Of a stretch of DNA of 64,000 bases, positions 38,779-64,000 are shown piece after piece; within the stretch, counting starts at the first letter, position 1, and each line of letters starts with the position of its first letter. Below the pieces are notes generated by a model that saw nothing but the letters and a program-made list of their open reading frames with translations, did not search any database and had not been told where the DNA came from. The translations under genes were made by a program, and so were the position numbers. This DNA is from Erysipelotrichaceae bacterium (GTDB lineage: Bacteria > Bacillota_I > Bacilli_A > RFN20 > CAG-449), in contig SVBA01000009.1 of NCBI GenBank assembly GCA_015059095.1, positions 3,228 through 67,227 of the forward strand, given 5' to 3'.

Positions 38779-39894
38779 ATGAAAGTAGTTGTTATAGGCG
38801 CAGGTCCTTGTGGGATTATGGCAAGTATTGAAATTAAAAAGAATAATCCTGAATATCAAGTAATTCTACTTGAAAAAGATTCTAGAAGCATCGGTAGTAG
38901 AATTAAGGTTTCTGGTAATGGAAGATGTAATTTAGGAAATAGTAATATTAATGAAAAGAAGTACAATCATTCATTATTTGTAAGAGACATTATATCTTTA
39001 AAAGAAGATTTGTTTTCTTATTTAAATGAAGGTGGATTAGGATACTTTACTGATGAAGAAGGAAGAATTTATCCGCTTAGTGAATCTTCCATTTCTGTTA
39101 TTCATGTTTTAAATAATTTGTTGAAAAAATATGGTGTGGATGTCAAATTAGATAGTAAGGTTGTCGAAATAAAGAAAAGTGGTAATAAATATCGAGTTTT
39201 ATGCGAAAAAGACGAATATTTTGCTGACAAAATAGTTTTAGCAATTGGTGGAATATCTCAATTAAATGATAAGTCTTTATATAGTAAATTACTAAATGAA
39301 TTAGATGTTAGAATAACCGATTTAAAGCCATCATTAACTCCTATTTTAACTTCAAAATTCGATAAAAGATTAGAAGGAAAAAGATGTAAAGTAAATGTAA
39401 AACTATTTAGAGATGGTGATTTAGTAAAAATTGAAGATGGTGAAATGTTATTTAAAAAAGATGGTGTATCGGGAATTGTGATGTTTAATATGTCATCTTA
39501 TTTATCTAGACAACATATCGATGATTATAGTTCATATTATTTTATAATTGATTTACTTCCTAAATTAACATATCATGAGTATTTAAAATTTAGAAGTATT
39601 GATCCAAGTCTTAAAAATATCATGCAAGAAGATATTGCTAGAGAAGTTGTTTCTAAAGGAATTGATCCAAAAGAATTTTTATTAGAAATAAAAGGACTTT
39701 ATGATTTTAAAAATTCACAAGTTACAAGTGGAGGAGTTGCTTTAGAAGAATTAAATTCTAATTTATCTTTAAAAAAAGATAATAATATCTTTATAGGTGG
39801 GGAAACTATAGATATCGATGGAGAATGCGGAGGATATAATATAGAATTTGCATTCCTATCTGGTATTAAAATAGGTCGTTTCTTCAATGAATAA
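38779..39894 (+). CDS. HI0933/BaiN-like FAD-dependent flavoprotein (aminoacetone-oxidase family)
   Basis: Rossmann VVVIGAGPCG, then GSRIKVSGNGRCN, and a C-terminal GGETIDIDGECGGYN. Confidence 0.7.
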   Translation: MKVVVIGAGPCGIMASIEIKKNNPEYQVILLEKDSRSIGSRIKVSGNGRCNLGNSNINEKKYNHSLFVRDIISLKEDLFSYLNEGGLGYFTDEEGRIYPLSESSISVIHVLNNLLKKYGVDVKLDSKVVEIKKSGNKYRVLCEKDEYFADKIVLAIGGISQLNDKSLYSKLLNELDVRITDLKPSLTPILTSKFDKRLEGKRCKVNVKLFRDGDLVKIEDGEMLFKKDGVSGIVMFNMSSYLSRQHIDDYSSYYFIIDLLPKLTYHEYLKFRSIDPSLKNIMQEDIAREVVSKGIDPKEFLLEIKGLYDFKNSQVTSGGVALEELNSNLSLKKDNNIFIGGETIDIDGECGGYNIEFAFLSGIKIGRFFNE

Positions 39895-58534: not shown

Positions 58535-58611
58535 GGTCTATTGGAGAAGCGGCTTAACTCGACGCCCTCTCAAGGCGTTATTCACGGGTTCGAACCCCGT
58601 ATAGATCACCA
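58535..58611 (+). tRNA. tRNA with CUC anticodon (tRNA-Glu-like), CCA encoded; marks the left edge of the island
   Basis: Hand-folded cloverleaf: acceptor GGTCTAT/ATAGATC, D-loop containing GG, anticodon stem ACGCC/GGCGT with loop CTCTCAA, T-arm ACGGG-TTCGAAC-CCCGT, discriminator A, then CCA. Confidence 0.55.
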
Positions 58612-58620
58612 GAATAGTAG

Positions 58621-58690
58621 AACAGGTTTGATACAATGCTATCAAGCCTTTTTTTGTGCTTTTATAAGGGTTCAAATCTCACCCGTAAGG
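58621..58690 (+). repeat. repeat module copy 1: TTGATAC-type terminator hairpin + T-run + tRNA T-arm-like segment
   Basis: GGTTTGATAcaatgcTATCAAGCC, then T7, then GCTTTTATAAGGGTTCAAATCTCACCCGTA. The last part resembles the 3' half (T-arm) of the adjacent tRNA (GGGTTCGAACCCCGTA). Confidence 0.5.
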
Positions 58691-58754
58691 AATTACTTAA
58701 ATGATTATTAATGATTTAAGTGTATAAATTGTTATTTTTAGTGTGTCTATTCGA

Positions 58755-58870
58755 TAAACGATTTAATAGAGTGGTTTCAAAAATTTAAGGACGGTTTCAT
58801 TATTAAACGATTATGTTAAGGTGGTTTCAAAAATAGTTCAAAGGTAGTTTCACACTATTAAACGATTATA
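58755..58870 (+). repeat. iteron array L: about 4 tandem 31-bp units of GGTGGTTTCA-N-TATTAAACGATTAT
   Basis: AAACGATT occurs 3 times and G(G/T)(T/A)GTTTCA occurs 4 times at about 31-bp spacing. Confidence 0.6.
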
Positions 58871-58929
58871 CAAATTCATAGTAAATACAAAGAAAATATG
58901 ATATAATAAATCAAAGGAAGTGGCTATAT

Positions 58930-59730
58930 ATGTTTGAGAGTTTGAAAATAATAAGTGAGTGTAAAAGAACACTTAAAAATCATAATATTAAATATAATGA
59001 AGACTTTAAAATATATAAGAAATTTGGATTAATTCATTGTCAAGTTGACGATTGGAGAGGTCCTGTTGAAGTTGATGGTTTTCCAGTTTTGACAATTAAA
59101 TCAGCCACTTTATTACTTATTGAATCTTGTGCATTTGATCATTATTTGTTGGAGGAAAAAAATAAAAGAGAACAGCTAATTAAAGAATATCCTTTAGGAT
59201 ATGGAGAATATGAAACGAGAAAATATCTTTTTGAAAATATACTAAAAGTCATAAAAGGTTATGATGAAAAACACTATGTTAGTTTAATTAATAAATATAC
59301 AAAGTATTTAAATATGAATAGGAAAACAAAGCAAAGATGGTCATACAATAAATCAACAGAAAAGTTTGAAATTTATCCTATTGCTTCATATTCAGCGGTG
59401 ATTATATCTAAAGCAATAAATACTATTAGAATTTATAATCAAGATCCTTGTGGTGGAAGATTAGATGATAATATTTATAAATTAATATCTGAAAATTTTG
59501 AAGATGGATTATTTAAATTTTCTTTTACTAATAACGGAGAAGACAGATTTTATTTAGAAATTTATAATCCGCAATATGCAGATGGTTCAGACAATTACAT
59601 TATGATTTATAAGGCTGATAAAGTAGTATGGTCGTATATGCCATTTGAAAATAGCGAGTCAAAACAAGAAAGAATATTTATTTTTGATGGAACAAAATTA
59701 AATATTGTTGGTGAAATTAATTTTAAATAA
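58930..59730 (+). CDS. hypothetical protein (266 aa), island gene
   Basis: Soluble protein with no motif I can recognise. AAGGAAG RBS. It is the first gene after iteron array L. Confidence 0.4.
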   Translation: MFESLKIISECKRTLKNHNIKYNEDFKIYKKFGLIHCQVDDWRGPVEVDGFPVLTIKSATLLLIESCAFDHYLLEEKNKREQLIKEYPLGYGEYETRKYLFENILKVIKGYDEKHYVSLINKYTKYLNMNRKTKQRWSYNKSTEKFEIYPIASYSAVIISKAINTIRIYNQDPCGGRLDDNIYKLISENFEDGLFKFSFTNNGEDRFYLEIYNPQYADGSDNYIMIYKADKVVWSYMPFENSESKQERIFIFDGTKLNIVGEINFK

Positions 59731-59770
59731 AGGATTAAAAAAATATCAACGAAAGGATAAAATTATAATT

Positions 59771-60256
59771 ATGATCAATAAGAAAGGTATAATTGGTGAA
59801 TTTATGGAAGAAAATGTAACATTGATTGGCTATAATTCTAAAAAACAGCCTTATATATTTTTAGGTGCAGCTATCTTGGTATTTATTATTGCTATACTGT
59901 GTATATTTTTTGCTGAAGGAAATAAAAAATTTGCATCAATTGCATTGTTTCTTATAGGGATAGGACTCATGATTGGCTTTTTTTATTTGTTAAAATTACC
60001 TCATATAGGTATTAAAGTAATAGATGACAAATACTTATACTTTTATGATAAAGATAATGTGAAAATTATTGATATTAGTAATATTGAAAAAGTAAATTAT
60101 TGGCCAGCAAATTATGGCCTTAAGATTGTTCTTTTCACTTCAAAAGGTAGTGAATATTTTACTTATTTATTATCTAATATCAAAGATGTAAAAAAACATT
60201 TATTATATTTATTTGAAAAAGAAAATATTAAGGTAATAAATAGGTATAGTAAGTAG
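59771..60256 (+). CDS. small membrane protein (2 TM + cytoplasmic domain), island gene
   Basis: The track ORF 59705..60256 begins with TTG. The first ATG (MINKKG) is at 59771. The protein has two TM helices and a roughly 100-aa C-terminal domain. Confidence 0.4.
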   Translation: MINKKGIIGEFMEENVTLIGYNSKKQPYIFLGAAILVFIIAILCIFFAEGNKKFASIALFLIGIGLMIGFFYLLKLPHIGIKVIDDKYLYFYDKDNVKIIDISNIEKVNYWPANYGLKIVLFTSKGSEYFTYLLSNIKDVKKHLLYLFEKENIKVINRYSK

Positions 60257-60411
60257 TATTGAATTATTCTCGATATTAAGTATTGGTGAAAAAATTGCAC
60301 TTGAAGTATTATAGAAAAGAAATGATGGTCTTAGTAAAAATGGCAAAATATTTTCTTTAAAGATGAAAGTATGTATTATAAAAAATTAAGTCCTATGAAA
60401 TAGGATTAAAA

Positions 60412-60585
60412 ATGAAATTAATAAGAGAAGCTAATGATGTAAGTAAAACAGAATTAGCCATTAGATTAAAAGTCAATCGAAAGACAGTTATATTATTAGA
60501 AAAAGGTGATAGGTTACCTTCATTAGAATATATCTATAACTTTTGTAAAATGTTTGATGTTTTGATTGAATTAATGTTAAATTAA
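60412..60585 (+). CDS. small XRE-family HTH regulator (57 aa)
   Basis: Hand translation gives MKLIREANDVSKTELAIRLKVNRKTVILLEKGDRLPSLEYIYNFCKMFDVLIELMLN, a Cro/C1-type HTH. Missing from the track because it is under 60 aa. A perfect palindrome TCCTATgaaATAGGA lies at 60391-60405, overlapping its RBS. Confidence 0.55.
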   Translation: MKLIREANDVSKTELAIRLKVNRKTVILLEKGDRLPSLEYIYNFCKMFDVLIELMLN

Positions 60586-60600
60586 AGGGGGTTATTTTCA

Positions 60601-61494
60601 ATGAAGTTAAATATTGTTGTTTTTATTTTATTTGTAATAATTTATGTTTTGACTATAGTTTTAACAATATTTAAAATCAAAGATATACACAAGAATCCTG
60701 AAAAATATGAGCATGAAGATTTAATTAATGAAACAAATAGAAAATATGCTAACAAATGGGATAAATTTTCTAGTTTTTTTAAATCATTATCTCATCAATA
60801 TGGAATGATAAATATGTTATTATGTTTTGTCTTTGTTGCTTTAGGAACAATATTTATCTTTTCCATAAATAAAGCGTATAGTCAAGGTGAAGGATATATT
60901 ACCTTAGGAACGCAACTAATTGGTTCAATTGGCCTATTATTTTTAGGGATTCCATTATGTATGATAATTATTCCATTGGCAATCAAAAAACCATTCTTTG
61001 TTGTTACAACGTTAGATATGTTTAATACAGACCATAGACCAAAAATATATTTTAAAGGATATATATTATTTTTAGTATTTTTTATAATAACATTTCCATT
61101 TATAACTCTGTCTTGTAACAATTACGTTTATTATGATTCAAATGGCATTTATTCAAATAGATATTTTCAGATTGAAGAAAAGTTTACTTCATATGAAGAA
61201 ATAACAAAGATTGAAATTTATTTAACCTATAAAGAAGAAAAAATATCTGGAGTACATTATGATGTGTATTTAAATGACGGAAGATTTAATATTAATTCAC
61301 CTAGCGGTAAAAAGAAGATATTTGCTGATAATACCTTTACAATACATAATTATGTTATAAATAAAAGTAATTGTGAATTTATTATTACTCCATTAACTGA
61401 AGATGATATTAATTTTTTAGTGGAAAACTATACTAACGATGATTATCAAAAAATTTTAGAAGTCTTTAATGCTGATCAATTAAAGGAGAATTAA
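60601..61494 (+). CDS. polytopic membrane protein (297 aa), island gene
   Basis: AAGGGGG RBS 8 nt upstream and at least five hydrophobic helices. Immediately downstream of the small XRE gene. Confidence 0.4.
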   Translation: MKLNIVVFILFVIIYVLTIVLTIFKIKDIHKNPEKYEHEDLINETNRKYANKWDKFSSFFKSLSHQYGMINMLLCFVFVALGTIFIFSINKAYSQGEGYITLGTQLIGSIGLLFLGIPLCMIIIPLAIKKPFFVVTTLDMFNTDHRPKIYFKGYILFLVFFIITFPFITLSCNNYVYYDSNGIYSNRYFQIEEKFTSYEEITKIEIYLTYKEEKISGVHYDVYLNDGRFNINSPSGKKKIFADNTFTIHNYVINKSNCEFIITPLTEDDINFLVENYTNDDYQKILEVFNADQLKEN

Positions 61495-61495
61495 A

Positions 61496-61984
61496 ATGAA
61501 AATAGGAATTATTAAGGAAAAGAAAGTTGGGTTACTAATATCTACTATTATTTGTCTTATATGTTGTATTTTTCCATTTTTTACTAAATTAGAGTTTATT
61601 GACAAAATATTTATATTCGTTATGCTGTTAATAGCATATTTAATTATATTATTATGTTTTCTAATATCGATGGAATGGTACATAATAGACATAGAATCTA
61701 TTACAGTTAAAAATGTTTTTGGAACAGTAAATAAAGTTTATTATAAAGATGTTAAATATTCTTATGTTAAACGATTACCTGTTTTTACTAGAGATAAAGG
61801 AATCTCTTGCTTATTATTTAATGATGGTAGAAAAGAATGCAGTTTCTTCACAGGTAATAATATAGATAATCATAAAAAATATATTATTAGAATTCCATAT
61901 ACTCAAGAAGTTGTGGATTATTTCAAAAAAAATAATATTGAGTTAAATAATAATTCGATTTTTAAAACTATAATAAATGAATAA
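61496..61984 (+). CDS. small membrane protein (2 TM + cytoplasmic domain), island gene
   Basis: AAGGAG RBS. Same architecture as 59771..60256, with a weak shared motif after TM2 (IIDIESITV versus IIDISNIEKV). Confidence 0.4.
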   Translation: MKIGIIKEKKVGLLISTIICLICCIFPFFTKLEFIDKIFIFVMLLIAYLIILLCFLISMEWYIIDIESITVKNVFGTVNKVYYKDVKYSYVKRLPVFTRDKGISCLLFNDGRKECSFFTGNNIDNHKKYIIRIPYTQEVVDYFKKNNIELNNNSIFKTIINE

Positions 61985-61985
61985 A

Positions 61986-62140
61986 ACAAACGATTTGCTA
62001 GGTGGTTTCATTATTAAACGATTTAGGCAGGTAGTTTCAAATTATTAAACGATTACAACTGATTTTCAGTAATTATTAAACGATATGGTCAGGTGGTTTC
62101 AAATTATTAAACGATTATGGCAACTATTAAACGATTTATT
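61986..62140 (+). repeat. iteron array R: about 4.5 tandem 31-bp units GGTGGTTTCA(A/T)ATTATTAAACGATT
   Basis: TATTAAACGAT appears 5 times at spacings of about 31, 31, 31 and 17 bp. Same unit and same orientation as array L. Confidence 0.65.
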
Positions 62141-62257
62141 AAAATTGTATTAATAGTGTCATACCTTGCCATTTAAGAAGATTAGATTTGATACAATATA
62201 TCAAGCCTTTTTTATTTGCTTTTATAGAGGTTCAAGTTCCACCCGTCTTGTTAAAAG
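62141..62257 (+). repeat. repeat module copy 2 (extended): AAAATTGT...TTGCCATTTAA + TTGATAC hairpin + T-run + GGTTCAAGTTCCACCCGT
   Basis: Aligns with copy 1 (hairpin, T-run, T-arm-like part) and over a longer stretch with copy 3. Confidence 0.5.
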
Positions 62258-62423
62258 ATGATATTGTTTCATTTTTATAACTGAAGTTTAGTGACTGATT
62301 TAATTAAGGAACTGCAGAGATTTTATAACTTTATAACGATTTGATAACAATTTAACGATTACCTAACTTTTTAAGACATCCTCCTAGATTGCACTAAGTT
62401 ATGGTGTTGCACCGCATTCAAGT

Positions 62424-62600
62424 ACCTATGGGCGGTAATAGATAGCTGTACGCAGATTATGGCAATTGATCAGGTGAGACTCCTACCCAACGAAAGTGGA
62501 GTCTTTTTATTATCTCGCATTGATGGATATTTTAATTATTTTTTAATATAATTTATATAGTGAAAATCGACTGATAAATTAGAATTTGACGGTCAAATCC
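62424..62600 (+). repeat. about 180-bp cassette A: conserved 60-nt segment + terminator hairpin + extended -10 promoter
   Basis: ACCTATGGGCGGTAATAGATAGCTGTACGCAGATTATGGCA..., then GAGACTCC...GGAGTC followed by T5, then TTGATG...TAATATAAT. About 88% identical to cassette B at 63475. Confidence 0.55.
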
Positions 62601-62691
62601 ACTCTACCACTGGTTAATTTCCTCACTAAACCAATGGTAGGTGTATTTTATAGAAAATAATTATTACACTAGATACGAAAGGAGATAACTT

Positions 62692-63294
62692 ATGAATCAA
62701 ATTAAAATAGGAAGATTTATTGCTGAATGTAGAAAAAAAGAAAACTTAACCCAAATGCAGTTAGCTGAAAAGTTAAACATCACAGACAAAGCAGTATCTA
62801 AGTGGGAAAGAGGTATAGCAATGCCTGATGCTTCTTTAATGCTTGATCTATGTAGTATTCTTGGTATTAGTGTAAATGAATTATTAAGTGGGGAGAAAAT
62901 TGATGTGGAAAATAATAATAACGAAAAGCTTTTGCTTGATATGGCAAAAGAATTAGAAAACAAAAACAAAACTATTTGGTCATCTATGTGGGCACTTATG
63001 ACTGTAAGTTTGATTACTTTAATTGCAGGTATTTTTATTGCTGCATTTTTGATACCAGAAGGTATCTGGCAACTTGTAACAATTCTTGGTGTTTGTGTTG
63101 TGTTTTTAATACCTTGCATCTACGCTGTAAAATTAGAAGTTAGTGTGGGAGCATATAAATGTAAAAACTGTGGTTATGAAATTGTTCCTACATATAAAGA
63201 AGCAATGATGTCGATGCATAGAGGAACAACTCGTCATTTATTGTGCCCTAAATGCAACAAACGTACTTGGTGTAAAAAAGTAATAAGGAAATAA
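62692..63294 (+). CDS. XRE-family HTH regulator fused to 2 TM helices and a C-terminal zinc-ribbon
   Basis: N-terminal HTH_3 (RFIAECRKKENLTQMQLAEKLNITDKAVSKWERG), two hydrophobic helices, then CKNCGYEIVP...CPKCNKRTWC. AAGGAG RBS. Confidence 0.55.
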   Translation: MNQIKIGRFIAECRKKENLTQMQLAEKLNITDKAVSKWERGIAMPDASLMLDLCSILGISVNELLSGEKIDVENNNNEKLLLDMAKELENKNKTIWSSMWALMTVSLITLIAGIFIAAFLIPEGIWQLVTILGVCVVFLIPCIYAVKLEVSVGAYKCKNCGYEIVPTYKEAMMSMHRGTTRHLLCPKCNKRTWCKKVIRK

Positions 63295-63359
63295 GATTTC
63301 AAATTGAGAGAGCGTCAAATTCCTATTTATCGTTTAGAAATAGGGGTATGCAATTGTAT

Positions 63360-63455
63360 TAAAATTGTGTAACGTTGCCATTTAAAATTACCAATCTTGA
63401 TACAATAAAAAGTATCAAGATTTTTTATTTTTATGGTGTTCAAGTTCAACTCCTT
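63360..63455 (+). repeat. repeat module copy 3: AAAATTGTGTAACGTTGCCATTTAA + perfect 11-bp TTGATAC hairpin + T-run + GGTGTTCAAGTTCAACTCC
   Basis: AATCTTGATACaataaaaaGTATCAAGATT followed by T6. Aligns with copies 1 and 2. Confidence 0.5.
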
Positions 63456-63474
63456 GATATACACAGCATTTAAA

Positions 63475-63640
63475 TACCTATGGACGGTAATAGATAGCTG
63501 TACGCAGATTATGGCAGTTAATCAAGTGAGGCTCCTACTCAATGAAAGTGGAGTCTTTTTATTATCTCGCATTGGTGGACATTTTAGTTGTTTTTTGATA
63601 TAATTTATATGGTGAAAATTGACTGATAAATTAGAATTTG
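63475..63640 (+). repeat. about 170-bp cassette B (near-identical to cassette A)
   Basis: ACCTATGGACGGTAATAGATAGCTGTACGCAGATTATGGCA..., then GAGGCTCC...GGAGTC followed by T5, then TTGGTG...TGATATAAT (extended -10). It ends 10 nt before the next ATG. Confidence 0.55.
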
Positions 63641-63650
63641 TAGGTGTGTT

Positions 63651-64000
63651 TATGAATAAAGAGTGGTCAGAATTAAATAAAGAAGTTAAGATTTTATTGA
63701 ATAAAAAAACAACCTTTAAAGATGGAATTAATAAACTCATTGCATTAAGAAGTTTACTTTTTAATGAATGGAAAAAAGCTATGAGTGATTTATCTATTGA
63801 AGATTATTCGAATCAACCATTTTTTAATAGAGATGGATACGAATCTAAAACGATCGCATATTCTATTTTTCACGTGTTTAGAATTGAAGATATTGTATTA
63901 AATACATTGATAAATAATAGACAACAAATTTTTATTCGAGATGATTATCAATATAAGATGAATTCATCTATTATTACAACGGGAAATGAATTAAAAGGCG
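63651..64000 (+). CDS. DinB_2/DUF664-like protein (3'-truncated at window edge)
   Basis: Frame is open from ATG 63651 to the window end. The segment IAYSIFHVFRIEDIVLNTLI resembles the DinB_2 helical bundle. Confidence 0.4.

Follow-up and report, generated by a model that had tools for sequence, protein, structure and literature searches.

What do three copies of a hairpin, a T-run and a box resembling a tRNA T-arm represent, when the first of them lies directly behind a tRNA gene? They occur at the end of a 64,000-nucleotide (nt) stretch of an Erysipelotrichaceae genome (contig SVBA01000009.1, positions 3,228 to 67,227, forward strand; the whole stretch is called the window below). An earlier note on this sequence had read them as old attachment-site duplications of the tRNA 3' end, with a family of terminators followed by a conserved box as the alternative. 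The reading favoured here, at a probability of roughly two in three, is that mobile units without recombinase genes stand in tandem at the CCA end of the tRNA gene, separated by attP-like junctions of large serine recombinases (LSR), and that the modules are the left ends of these units and double as terminators.

Three modules and their position

The three copies were present as quoted in the earlier note, and were homologous by repeat families, pattern counts and alignment. They are numbered here by the putative units (U1 to U3) that they begin:

58535..58611, + strand: tRNA called Glu(CTC) (ARAGORN; Rfam RF00005 at 56 bits)
58612..58690, + strand: module 1, left end of U1 (hairpin 58624-58649; T7 58650-58656; box 58666-58690)
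58612-58637, + strand: 26-nt P'-type half-site of module 1, sequence GAATAGTAGAACAGGTTTGATACAAT, with GATAC at +19
62172..62250, + strand: module 2, left end of U2 (half-site 62172-62197; weak hairpin 62186-62208; T6; box 62224-62250)
63381..63452, + strand: module 3, left end of U3 (hairpin 63393-63422; T6; most divergent box 63433-63452)

The copies existed as delimited before, but copies 2 and 3 start further upstream, at a '...TTGCCA' 13 nt before the hairpin. In every copy the hairpin started 13 nt past a '...CCA', which was the end of tRNA-Glu(CTC) ahead of copy 1 and a conserved element end (ATTGTATTAA-N16-CCA) ahead of copies 2 and 3. The repeat search joined the copies as families D5 and D8, and extended copies 2 and 3 upstream as family D4 (shared sequence AATTGTATTAA.A.TGT....TTGCCA). 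Within the 64-kb window, TTGATACAAT on the + strand was confined to the three modules, and a degenerate 29-nt box pattern matched copies 1 and 2 only (0 expected). In an alignment of 10 sequences that included homologues from other genomes (mean column identity 67%), GATACAAT and with it the 5' arm of the hairpin were invariant, and the 3' arm and loop were variable.

Modules 1 and 3 were called intrinsic terminators (a G+C-containing hairpin followed by a T-run), and module 2 was not. Fold energies of modules 1, 2 and 3 were -12.8, -5.6 and -13.2 kcal/mol (z = -6.8), and terminator calls in the region numbered 5 against 0.9 expected. Rfam scans at gathering and permissive settings returned two tRNAs only; neither the modules nor a 184-nt repeat that follows modules 2 and 3 was covered by any family.

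The same unit behind different tRNA genes

An exact-protein look-up found the same locus in three independent assemblies (L001, L002 and L034; related loci are given by such numbers). In a different genome (L003), the order was tRNA-Leu(CAA), module 2, HTH gene, module 3 and next gene; window positions 62169-63720 matched L003 3475-5026 at 99.8%, and homology began exactly at the CCA. Module 2 was therefore not made in place from tRNA-Glu. A module closely related to module 2 stood behind a tRNA-Arg 3' fragment in L013. The tRNAs that anchored a module on the left were Leu(CAA) (L003, L012 and L055), Thr(GGT) (L022), Arg(ACG) (L013) and Glu(CTC) (the window). Before the junction, tRNA-Leu, the tRNA-Arg fragment, tRNA-Thr, tRNA-Glu and the element ends had only CCA in common. 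The smallest complete unit measured 675 nt (L012: tRNA-CCA, module, promoter, one gene, end-CCA, next module).

Many copies at ordinary gene ends, as in a generic repetitive extragenic palindromic (REP) or terminator family, had been named in the earlier note as the finding that would overturn an attachment-site reading. No such copies were seen: there were none in window positions 1-58000 (58 kb of ordinary genes) or elsewhere in the 64 kb outside the three modules, and in other genomes the module always lay at a junction with a tRNA-CCA or an element-end CCA.

Element end and dyad-symmetric site

Exact copies of the 24-nt element-end motif GCAATTGTATTAAAATTGTGTAAC were present at 25 loci in species-representative genomes and at 20 in metagenomes, so that about 45 loci of uncultured gut Bacillota carried the site; viral contigs and the records of phages and plasmids gave no match. 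Unit ends were perfectly conserved over 37 nt between distant gut Bacillota. The order upstream was conserved in all element-end loci (gene stop, CAAATTCCWATTTATCG, a variable number of GGGTATGCAAA / TTTAACGATTAC repeats, GGGTATGCAATTGTATTAAAATTGTGTAACGTTGCCA), and immediately downstream of the CCA all loci diverged.

Element end and module together formed a 54-bp site, ATTGTATyAAAA-N14-CA-N14-TyTTGATACAAT (26+2+26 bp). The outer 11-14 nt of the two 26-nt halves around CA were inverted repeats (ATTGTATTAAAATTG against the reverse complement of TyTTGATACAAT), and the inner 14 nt were variable. The 5' arm of the hairpin was the outer right motif of this site. Because the halves are inverted around CA, the invariant hairpin sequence is the mirror of the element end, and the 13-nt gap between CCA and hairpin is a fixed geometry of the site. 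GATAC stood exactly at +19 to +23 in 19 of 51 distinct right flanks (chance 0.002 per flank). The 26+2+26 geometry recurred in four divergent families: a (window 62144-62197 and L011), b (window 63353-63406), c (L020) and d (L064), each with a different arm repeat.

The family-specific direct repeats flanked the junction at a spacing of 20-21 or 31 nt, and the last repeat merged into the element end. Their motifs were GGTGGTTTCA + ATTAAACGATT, GGGTATGCAAA + TTTAACGATTAC, GTGTACGCA and GGGGTGCGAAA, at window 58750-58870 and 61995-62143, L026 881-971, L064 12640-12710, and in L020.

Recombinase genes beside the element end

Full-length LSR homologues stood in a fixed gene module of HTH_38 (128 amino acids, aa), SHOCT_2 (90 aa), a first LSR (427-438 aa) and a second LSR (LSR2; 527-537 aa). 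In L061 and L063 the order was HTH_38, SHOCT_2, LSR (427-431 aa) and LSR (535-537 aa); within about 290 nt there followed a conserved non-coding element (nc), the short repeats and then the element end known from the window, behind which L063 had a full module, box included. The same gene module closed a siphovirus-like prophage in L064 and L065, and L067 was another phage bearing it. The two prophage loci were 98-100% identical (50-nt windows) through LSR2, the ArsR/DUF5714 cargo, three GGGGTGCGAAA repeats and ATTGTATCAATTTAGGTAATTCGTGCCATTAA. Their identity ended at ...GTGCCATTAA, beyond which the flanks were unrelated, and the right flank of L064 was a T-type half-site that completed a 54-bp site. 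In the three autonomous elements (L061, L063 and the L064/L065 prophage), the site thus lay beside the LSR genes, 0.3-1.2 kb downstream of them, and the arm-repeat motif changed with the recombinase lineage.

The LSR genes at these sites carried Resolvase, Recombinase and Zn_ribbon_recom domains. They were not Ccr orthologues (NCBIfam CcrB 131-134 bits against a cut-off of 900; CcrA 71 against 700), and their closest solved relative was a conjugative-transposon recombinase. The zinc-ribbon motif of A118-family serine integrases (TTTAGTATC) occupies bp 16-24 in each half of attP, and these enzymes cross over at a central dinucleotide (PMC3783163). Here TTTGATAC occupied bp 16-23 of the half-site, an agreement with the A118 motif in position only. 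A 5-bp shifted zinc-ribbon motif in tRNAs and native trailers was also considered; by-eye matches were weak and inconsistent between loci, and are not used as evidence.

A serine rather than a tyrosine integrase is indicated because identity was limited to about CCA, the dyad centred on a dinucleotide, the motif position agreed and the sites adjoined LSR genes. From this association, the LSR pair probably recognises and recombines the 54-bp sites. The HTH_38 and SHOCT_2 proteins are candidates to bind the arm repeats.

A truncated LSR lay just upstream of nc and element end in L042. The open reading frame (ORF; 1227-2255, - strand) joined the first HTH_38 residues to the LSR2 C-terminus (Recombinase, zinc ribbon, coiled coil), the deletion covering the SHOCT gene, LSR1 and the catalytic domain. 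L042 captures, as a snapshot, an autonomous element decaying into a recombinase-less one.

Units in the window

The start of the array took up the last 5.5 kb of the window, in the order tRNA-Glu - CA, U1 - CA, U2 - CA, U3. Besides the modules, its features were:

58750..58870, + strand: U1 left-arm family-a direct repeats (GGTGGTTTCA / ATTAAACGATT; families D2 and D3), then a promoter-like region before the U1 genes
58930..61984, + strand: U1 cargo, five co-oriented genes (266, 161-183, 57 (HTH_3), 297 and 162 aa), no recombinase
61995..62143, + strand: U1 right-arm family-a direct repeats (ATTAAACGAT x5, the first four at 31-nt spacing)
62144..62197, + strand: U1/U2 54-bp attP-like junction, a pattern match (family-a end ATTGTATTAATAGTGTCATACCTTGC, central CA 62170-62171, then TTTAAGAAGATTAGATTTGATACAAT)
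62327..62374, + strand: U2 leader with family-b short repeats (ATAACGATT, ATTTAACGATTAC)
62382..62512, + strand: nc element, about 130 nt, with a hairpin and T-run at its end; 96% identical to the sequence after the LSR2 stop in L061 and L063
62524-62552, + strand: conserved U2 promoter-like site TGGATA-17-TATAAT
62573-62588, + strand: U2 palindrome GATAAATTAGAATTTG (L-site), after the promoter-like site
62692..63294, + strand: U2 cargo, a 200-aa HTH_3 / membrane / zinc-ribbon-like protein
63315-63332, + strand: R-site CAAATTCCTATTTATCG, an inverted L-site copy with another central dinucleotide (repeat I19)
within 63315..63352, + strand: TTTAGAAATAGGGGTATGCA after the R-site, running into the element end
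63353..63406, + strand: U2/U3 54-bp attP-like junction (family-b end ATTGTATTAAAATTGTGTAACGTTGC, central CA 63379-63380, then TTTAAAATTACCAATCTTGATACAAT)
63462..63640, + strand: second copy of nc, promoter and L-site, in U3 (repeat D1, 90%; promoter TGGACA-17-TATAAT 63576-63604; L-site 63625-63640)

The family-a repeats GGTGGTTTCA and ATTAAACGATT gave 9 and 6 matches (0.3 and 0.13 expected), flanked the first gene block on both sides and recurred in L012 and L011. In L013, L020, L055 and L063 the junction had the family-b motifs ATAACGATT and ATTTAACGATTAC to its left and right alike. The 184-nt repeat D1 after modules 2 and 3 comprised a hairpin with T-run, a promoter-like site and GATAAATTAGAATTTG. 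U3 consisted of module 3, nc, promoter, L-site, four cassettes and further sequence; its first cassette gene began at 63652 and ran off the window. The assembly L001 reached 10 kb past the window, through further small co-oriented genes (216-aa protein, AAA_18 kinase, GNAT, glyoxalase, and proteins of 142 and 174 aa), with at least one more unit after U3.

The nc element was located at window 62382-62512 and 63462-63564, L061 4038-4167, L063 5072-5197 and L055 481-579, and in L042. In autonomous elements it always came right after the LSR2 stop codon, and it was kept in recombinase-less units. Since U2 still has nc, whose normal place is behind LSR2, it looks like an autonomous element from which the HTH-SHOCT-LSR-LSR genes were lost. 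No Rfam family matched nc, and its fold energy was no better than that of shuffles; it may act as a regulatory RNA, as a region to which protein binds or as a terminator that insulates.

In L015, L026, L042 and L055, a cysteine-rich protein of 230-235 aa recurred directly before the element end, next to GGTATGCA repeats and with no R-site; the 235-aa form had no Pfam domain.

tRNA gene and surroundings

The window was about 27% G+C, and the TypA protein that it encodes matched, at 100% identity, one from a metagenome-assembled genome (MAG) with the label Erysipelotrichaceae bacterium. The genes ahead of tRNA-Glu(CTC) were all ordinary (U32 peptidase, M18 aminopeptidase, MFS transporter). The last 28 nt of the tRNA gene (T-arm to CCA) would serve the first junction as its left half, of the chromosomal (B) type, with central CA at 58610-58611.

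The tRNA was odd for a genome stretch of this composition (CUC anticodon, A73 discriminator and a Ser/Leu-like D-loop, AGCGGCTTAA, yet a short variable arm), and was isolated, with a promoter-like site of its own. It may have been acquired or specialised.

The identical upstream MFS gene occurred on three independent metagenome contigs, which broke 7 nt past the tRNA CCA (L039 and L040) or within the box (L038). These breaks suggest strain-level variation downstream of the tRNA, with which they are compatible without proving it. No empty (unoccupied) site was recovered among contigs bearing this gene.

Proposed mechanism

In the favoured reading, a unit would start with the 26-nt P' half, whose outer motif TyTTGATACAAT makes up the 5' arm and loop of the hairpin, followed by the T-run and in some lineages by a fossil T-arm. 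It would end with the P half, ATTGTATyAAAA-N14, directly before CA. Junctions between units would then be intact 54-bp P-CA-P' sites (attP-like), and the first junction, tRNA-CA-P', would be attL-like. The LSR pair encoded upstream of the same element end in autonomous relatives, temperate phages included, would recognise these sites and catalyse a crossover in the CA of CCA. The units of the window would be deletion derivatives, or hitchers mobilised in trans, and the array would be built by such events. Hairpin and T-run would act as a terminator for the tRNA or the preceding unit; a terminator placed within the half-site would make functional sense, because an incoming site replaces the native trailer of the tRNA.

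Several points weigh against this. Neither the window nor the next 10 kb yielded a recombinase gene (ORFs by eye; Pfam on all island ORFs and suspicious window ORFs), and a Pfam search of a 374-aa reverse-strand ORF beside tRNA-His gave none. Cargo ORFs checked by eye, a subset of them also with Pfam, likewise included no recombinase. The link to LSR genes is adjacency in three related element types, a cognate pair in the same genome as the window array is hypothetical, and no locus included the left end of an autonomous element. The MAGs with element-end loci bear the labels Erysipelotrichaceae, Bacilli, Anaeroplasmataceae, Christensenellaceae, Clostridia and Acutalibacteraceae; several of the loci are on short contigs, for which the taxonomic label is doubtful. 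The target tRNAs have little common sequence beyond T-arm and CCA. Trailers after the tRNA and after the element end in L022 and L013 were 80-90% alike over >100 nt, a likeness not expected from simple exchange between attP and attB. Classical serine integrases need a directionality factor to recombine attL or attP-like hybrids, and because of this rule the building and resolution of a tandem P-CA-P' array are hard to explain. Arm repeats such as GGGTATGCAAA, TTTAACGATTAC and GGTGGTTTCA are typical of the arm-type sites of tyrosine integrases, and serine integrases need none.

Other explanations

That some other mechanism acts at the CCA, with the LSR genes neighbours only through phages that use the same integration hot spot, is unlikely. 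The agent would be a heterobivalent tyrosine integrase, some other repeat-binding enzyme with its gene elsewhere, or homologous recombination between similar tRNA trailers. In three LSR lineages the spacing from LSR2 to the element end downstream was short and constant and the repeat motif tracked the lineage, which does not fit it, and a dyad about a dinucleotide with about 3 bp of identity suits serine, not tyrosine, recombinases; it would accommodate the family-specific direct repeats on both arms with their 20-31-nt phasing, the similar trailers of the single units in L022 and L013, and the lack of an LSR in the window. Given the LSR link, a heterobivalent tyrosine integrase with arm sites is a minor rival.

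The origin put forward in the earlier note, successive duplications of the adjacent tRNA 3' end, taken here as left by tyrosine-integrase islands of different ages that decayed in place, is distinctly improbable, and for the modules as a whole it is largely refuted. An array directly behind a tRNA gene, a T-arm-like box, short direct repeats on two arms that recall arm-type sites, and a genuine displaced tRNA-Arg 3' fragment beside a unit in L013 all agree with it. No tyrosine integrase was found, however, among the window ORFs, over the following 10 kb or among the related-locus ORFs inspected by eye (a subset also by Pfam). The supposed likeness of the box to the 3' half of the adjacent tRNA was weak when aligned against shuffles (p = 0.03, 0.33 and 0.15 for copies 1 to 3), and the box lay 3' of the hairpin, not before the trailer, which is the wrong order for attR. 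About two thirds of homologous modules lacked the box. The attachment-site half of the proposal stands, in that the modules mark attachment-type junctions of elements at a tRNA gene; that they are copies of this tRNA graded by age is contradicted by the 99.8% match of module 2 behind a different tRNA in L003, by identity limited to about CCA, by the dispensability of the box and by the lack of a tyrosine integrase in the locus.

A plain family of intrinsic terminators with a conserved box (REP-like or generic), copied along with neighbouring DNA and involving no recombination, is very improbable: the hairpin and T-run, the terminator calls for copies 1 and 3 and the position of modules at the ends of transcription units suit it, but it leaves unexplained why 58 kb of ordinary genes held no more copies, why the 5' arm was invariant while the 3' arm and loop varied, why the hairpin motif kept a fixed 26-nt distance from the CCA in mirror symmetry to the element end, and why module 2 was otherwise conserved despite its weak hairpin, so that the conserved hairpin sequence is better read as a recombinase half-site.

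Four further candidates were set aside. Retro-mobility primed from a tRNA-like ...CCA 3' end was ruled out, the module (terminator) lying before, not after, the unit promoter. The spacer as a miniature inverted-repeat transposable element, with R- and L-sites as terminal inverted repeats, was ruled out by recombination at the CCA, which joins one module to three left partners. Insertion of the IS200/IS605 type, 3' of a target tetranucleotide, was unsupported given the long similar trailers and the dyad site. As a mimic of a tRNA minihelix, the element end was 2 nt off in geometry and had no 5' acceptor partner.

T-arm-like box

A better match to the box than the adjacent tRNA was the T-arm of tRNA-Leu(CAA) in related loci: copies 1 and 2 were identical to it at 14 of 16 positions (p<0.002; GGGTTCAAGTCCCACC against GGGTTCGAATCCCACC), and copy 3 reached significance against no tRNA. 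tRNA-Leu(CAA) was also the commonest target of the element family. The box was found in 8 of 53 distinct flanks and in 7 of 26 T-type flanks, by a pattern that overlooks the copies in L012 and L056. Better-kept boxes (L020, L031, L055 and L063) were followed by a short trailer of their own and a second terminator. The box is read as a fossil displaced tRNA 3' end that was absorbed into the P' arm and is carried by some unit lineages, dispensable for the site. It may also serve as an auxiliary binding site.

An independent parallel was found at tRNA-Arg in L013 (tRNA, trailer, hairpin, decayed tRNA 3' end and second hairpin). At L013 4852-5053 (displayed on the - strand), about 200 nt separated the complete tRNA-Arg(ACG) from a 25-nt displaced copy of its 3' end, and the trailers were duplicated. 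This segment resembles what a classical (tyrosine-type) tRNA island would leave behind, the displaced fragment having later been a docking point for a unit.

Inner cassette layer

Within units, a palindrome, (G)ATAAATT-AG-AATTTG (the L-site), stood between genes, 8-15 nt before each ribosome-binding site. Arrays closed with an inverted L-site copy that had another centre, ACAAATT-CC-AATTTATCG (the R-site). Such short palindromic sites were also located at L001 11608, 12135, 12599 and 12990, and at L024 388-2697. One and the same cassette could have different partners, joined to it at the AAATT core: the AAA_18 kinase, a GNAT and a GrpB-like gene each preceded a further cassette at one locus but the closing site at a second. 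In L062 and L066, the conserved promoter came directly behind the LSR2 gene, and after it an L-site and cassettes. Cassette junctions were 16-22-bp palindromes with about 30 nt from stop to start; not every junction lay at an L-site, as L004 showed.

Insertion sequences of the IS3 family (rve) occurred in or next to arrays (L044, with orfA/orfB just upstream of an L-site; L062 13826-15036). An extra exact ATAAATTAGAATTT palindrome within an ordinary ORF at window 39753-39768 is probably due to chance (1.3 matches expected).

A tentative proposal, which is rather doubtful, is that serine recombinases of uncultured gut Bacillota capture genes at two levels: platforms made up of promoter and cassettes would dock at the tRNA CCA, and promoterless genes would be swapped at 16-22-bp L-sites behind the recombinase genes and promoter, with phages as carriers or helpers. 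As part of the same proposal, docking would occur at the CA of CCA in many tRNAs, by platforms with or without the recombinase pair, the conserved T-arm lying within the chromosomal half-site. Such a system would be a functional analogue of integrons built on LSRs rather than on the IntI tyrosine recombinase. The searchable literature held no description of an integron-like system with short palindromic sites and serine recombinases, and the inner cassette layer is possibly more novel than the outer layer of att sites.

Significance and comparison with known systems

If units do recombine as proposed, a serine-recombinase system would target tRNA CCA ends, a niche normally credited to tyrosine integrases. 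The use of one enzyme for many tRNAs would be explained, since the conserved T-arm lies within the 26-bp half-site. Miniature recombinase-less units (0.7-3.5 kb, with resistance, detoxification and defence-type genes) would spread among distant gut Bacillota and pile into arrays, and the 54-bp sites with their recombinase pairs would be candidate tools for genome engineering. An integron-like cassette layer would possibly exist in Gram-positive bacteria, in which true integrons are rare.

The attP and attB sites of serine integrases (A118/LI, Bxb1 and phiC31; PMC3783163) have in common with the present sites an imperfect dyad of about 50 bp, a crossover dinucleotide, a distal motif at bp 16-24, near-zero identity between partners beyond the core, and a recombinase gene adjoining attP at one prophage end. 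Unlike in those systems, the LSR genes here are two in tandem and are accompanied by genes for HTH and SHOCT proteins, several different tRNA genes serve as targets at their CCA ends in place of one protein-coding gene, and intact attP-like junctions lie inside chromosomal arrays, with many recombinase-less derivatives and phased arm repeats.

The staphylococcal cassette chromosome (SCC/SCCmec) and the Enterococcus cassette chromosome (CcrAB) have an LSR pair, integrate at the 3' end of a housekeeping gene and form tandem arrays, recombinase-less members included, with repeats of the att core; SCC cargo comprises resistance and defence genes. The LSR pair, the tandem recombinase-less units with att-core repeats and the resistance and defence cargo are alike. 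The present recombinases differ in not being Ccr orthologues, the target is the tRNA CCA end instead of the rlmH 3' end, the helpers include phages, and units are as small as 0.7 kb.

With tRNA islands and accretion of the cis-mobilizable element (CIME) or tycheposon type (compare PMC4383910), the array has in common a tRNA hot spot, tandem accretion and helper-dependent members without integrase. Those systems have tyrosine integrases, a crossover inside the tRNA and displaced 3' fragments. In the present system the tRNA stays intact, partners agree in little more than CCA, and the associated recombinase is of the serine type. Set beside the marks of a classical tRNA island, the locus had no tyrosine integrase, and its boundary was at the element-end CCA, not at a displaced 3' end of the adjacent tRNA.

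Likeness to integrons and to clusters of attC sites lacking integron integrases (CALINs) lies in a promoter followed by co-oriented, promoterless single-gene cassettes, in GNAT, glyoxalase, kinase and HTH cargo, and in varying neighbours. Unlike in integrons, no IntI was seen, the sites were 16-22-bp palindromes (ATAAATT-AG-AATTT) in place of the structured attC of 57-141 bp (R''-L''...L'-R'), arrays closed with an inverted copy of the site, and the recombinases were of the serine type. Taken together, the system combines known kinds, namely serine-integrase att sites and SCC-like or CIME-like accretion, in a new variant.

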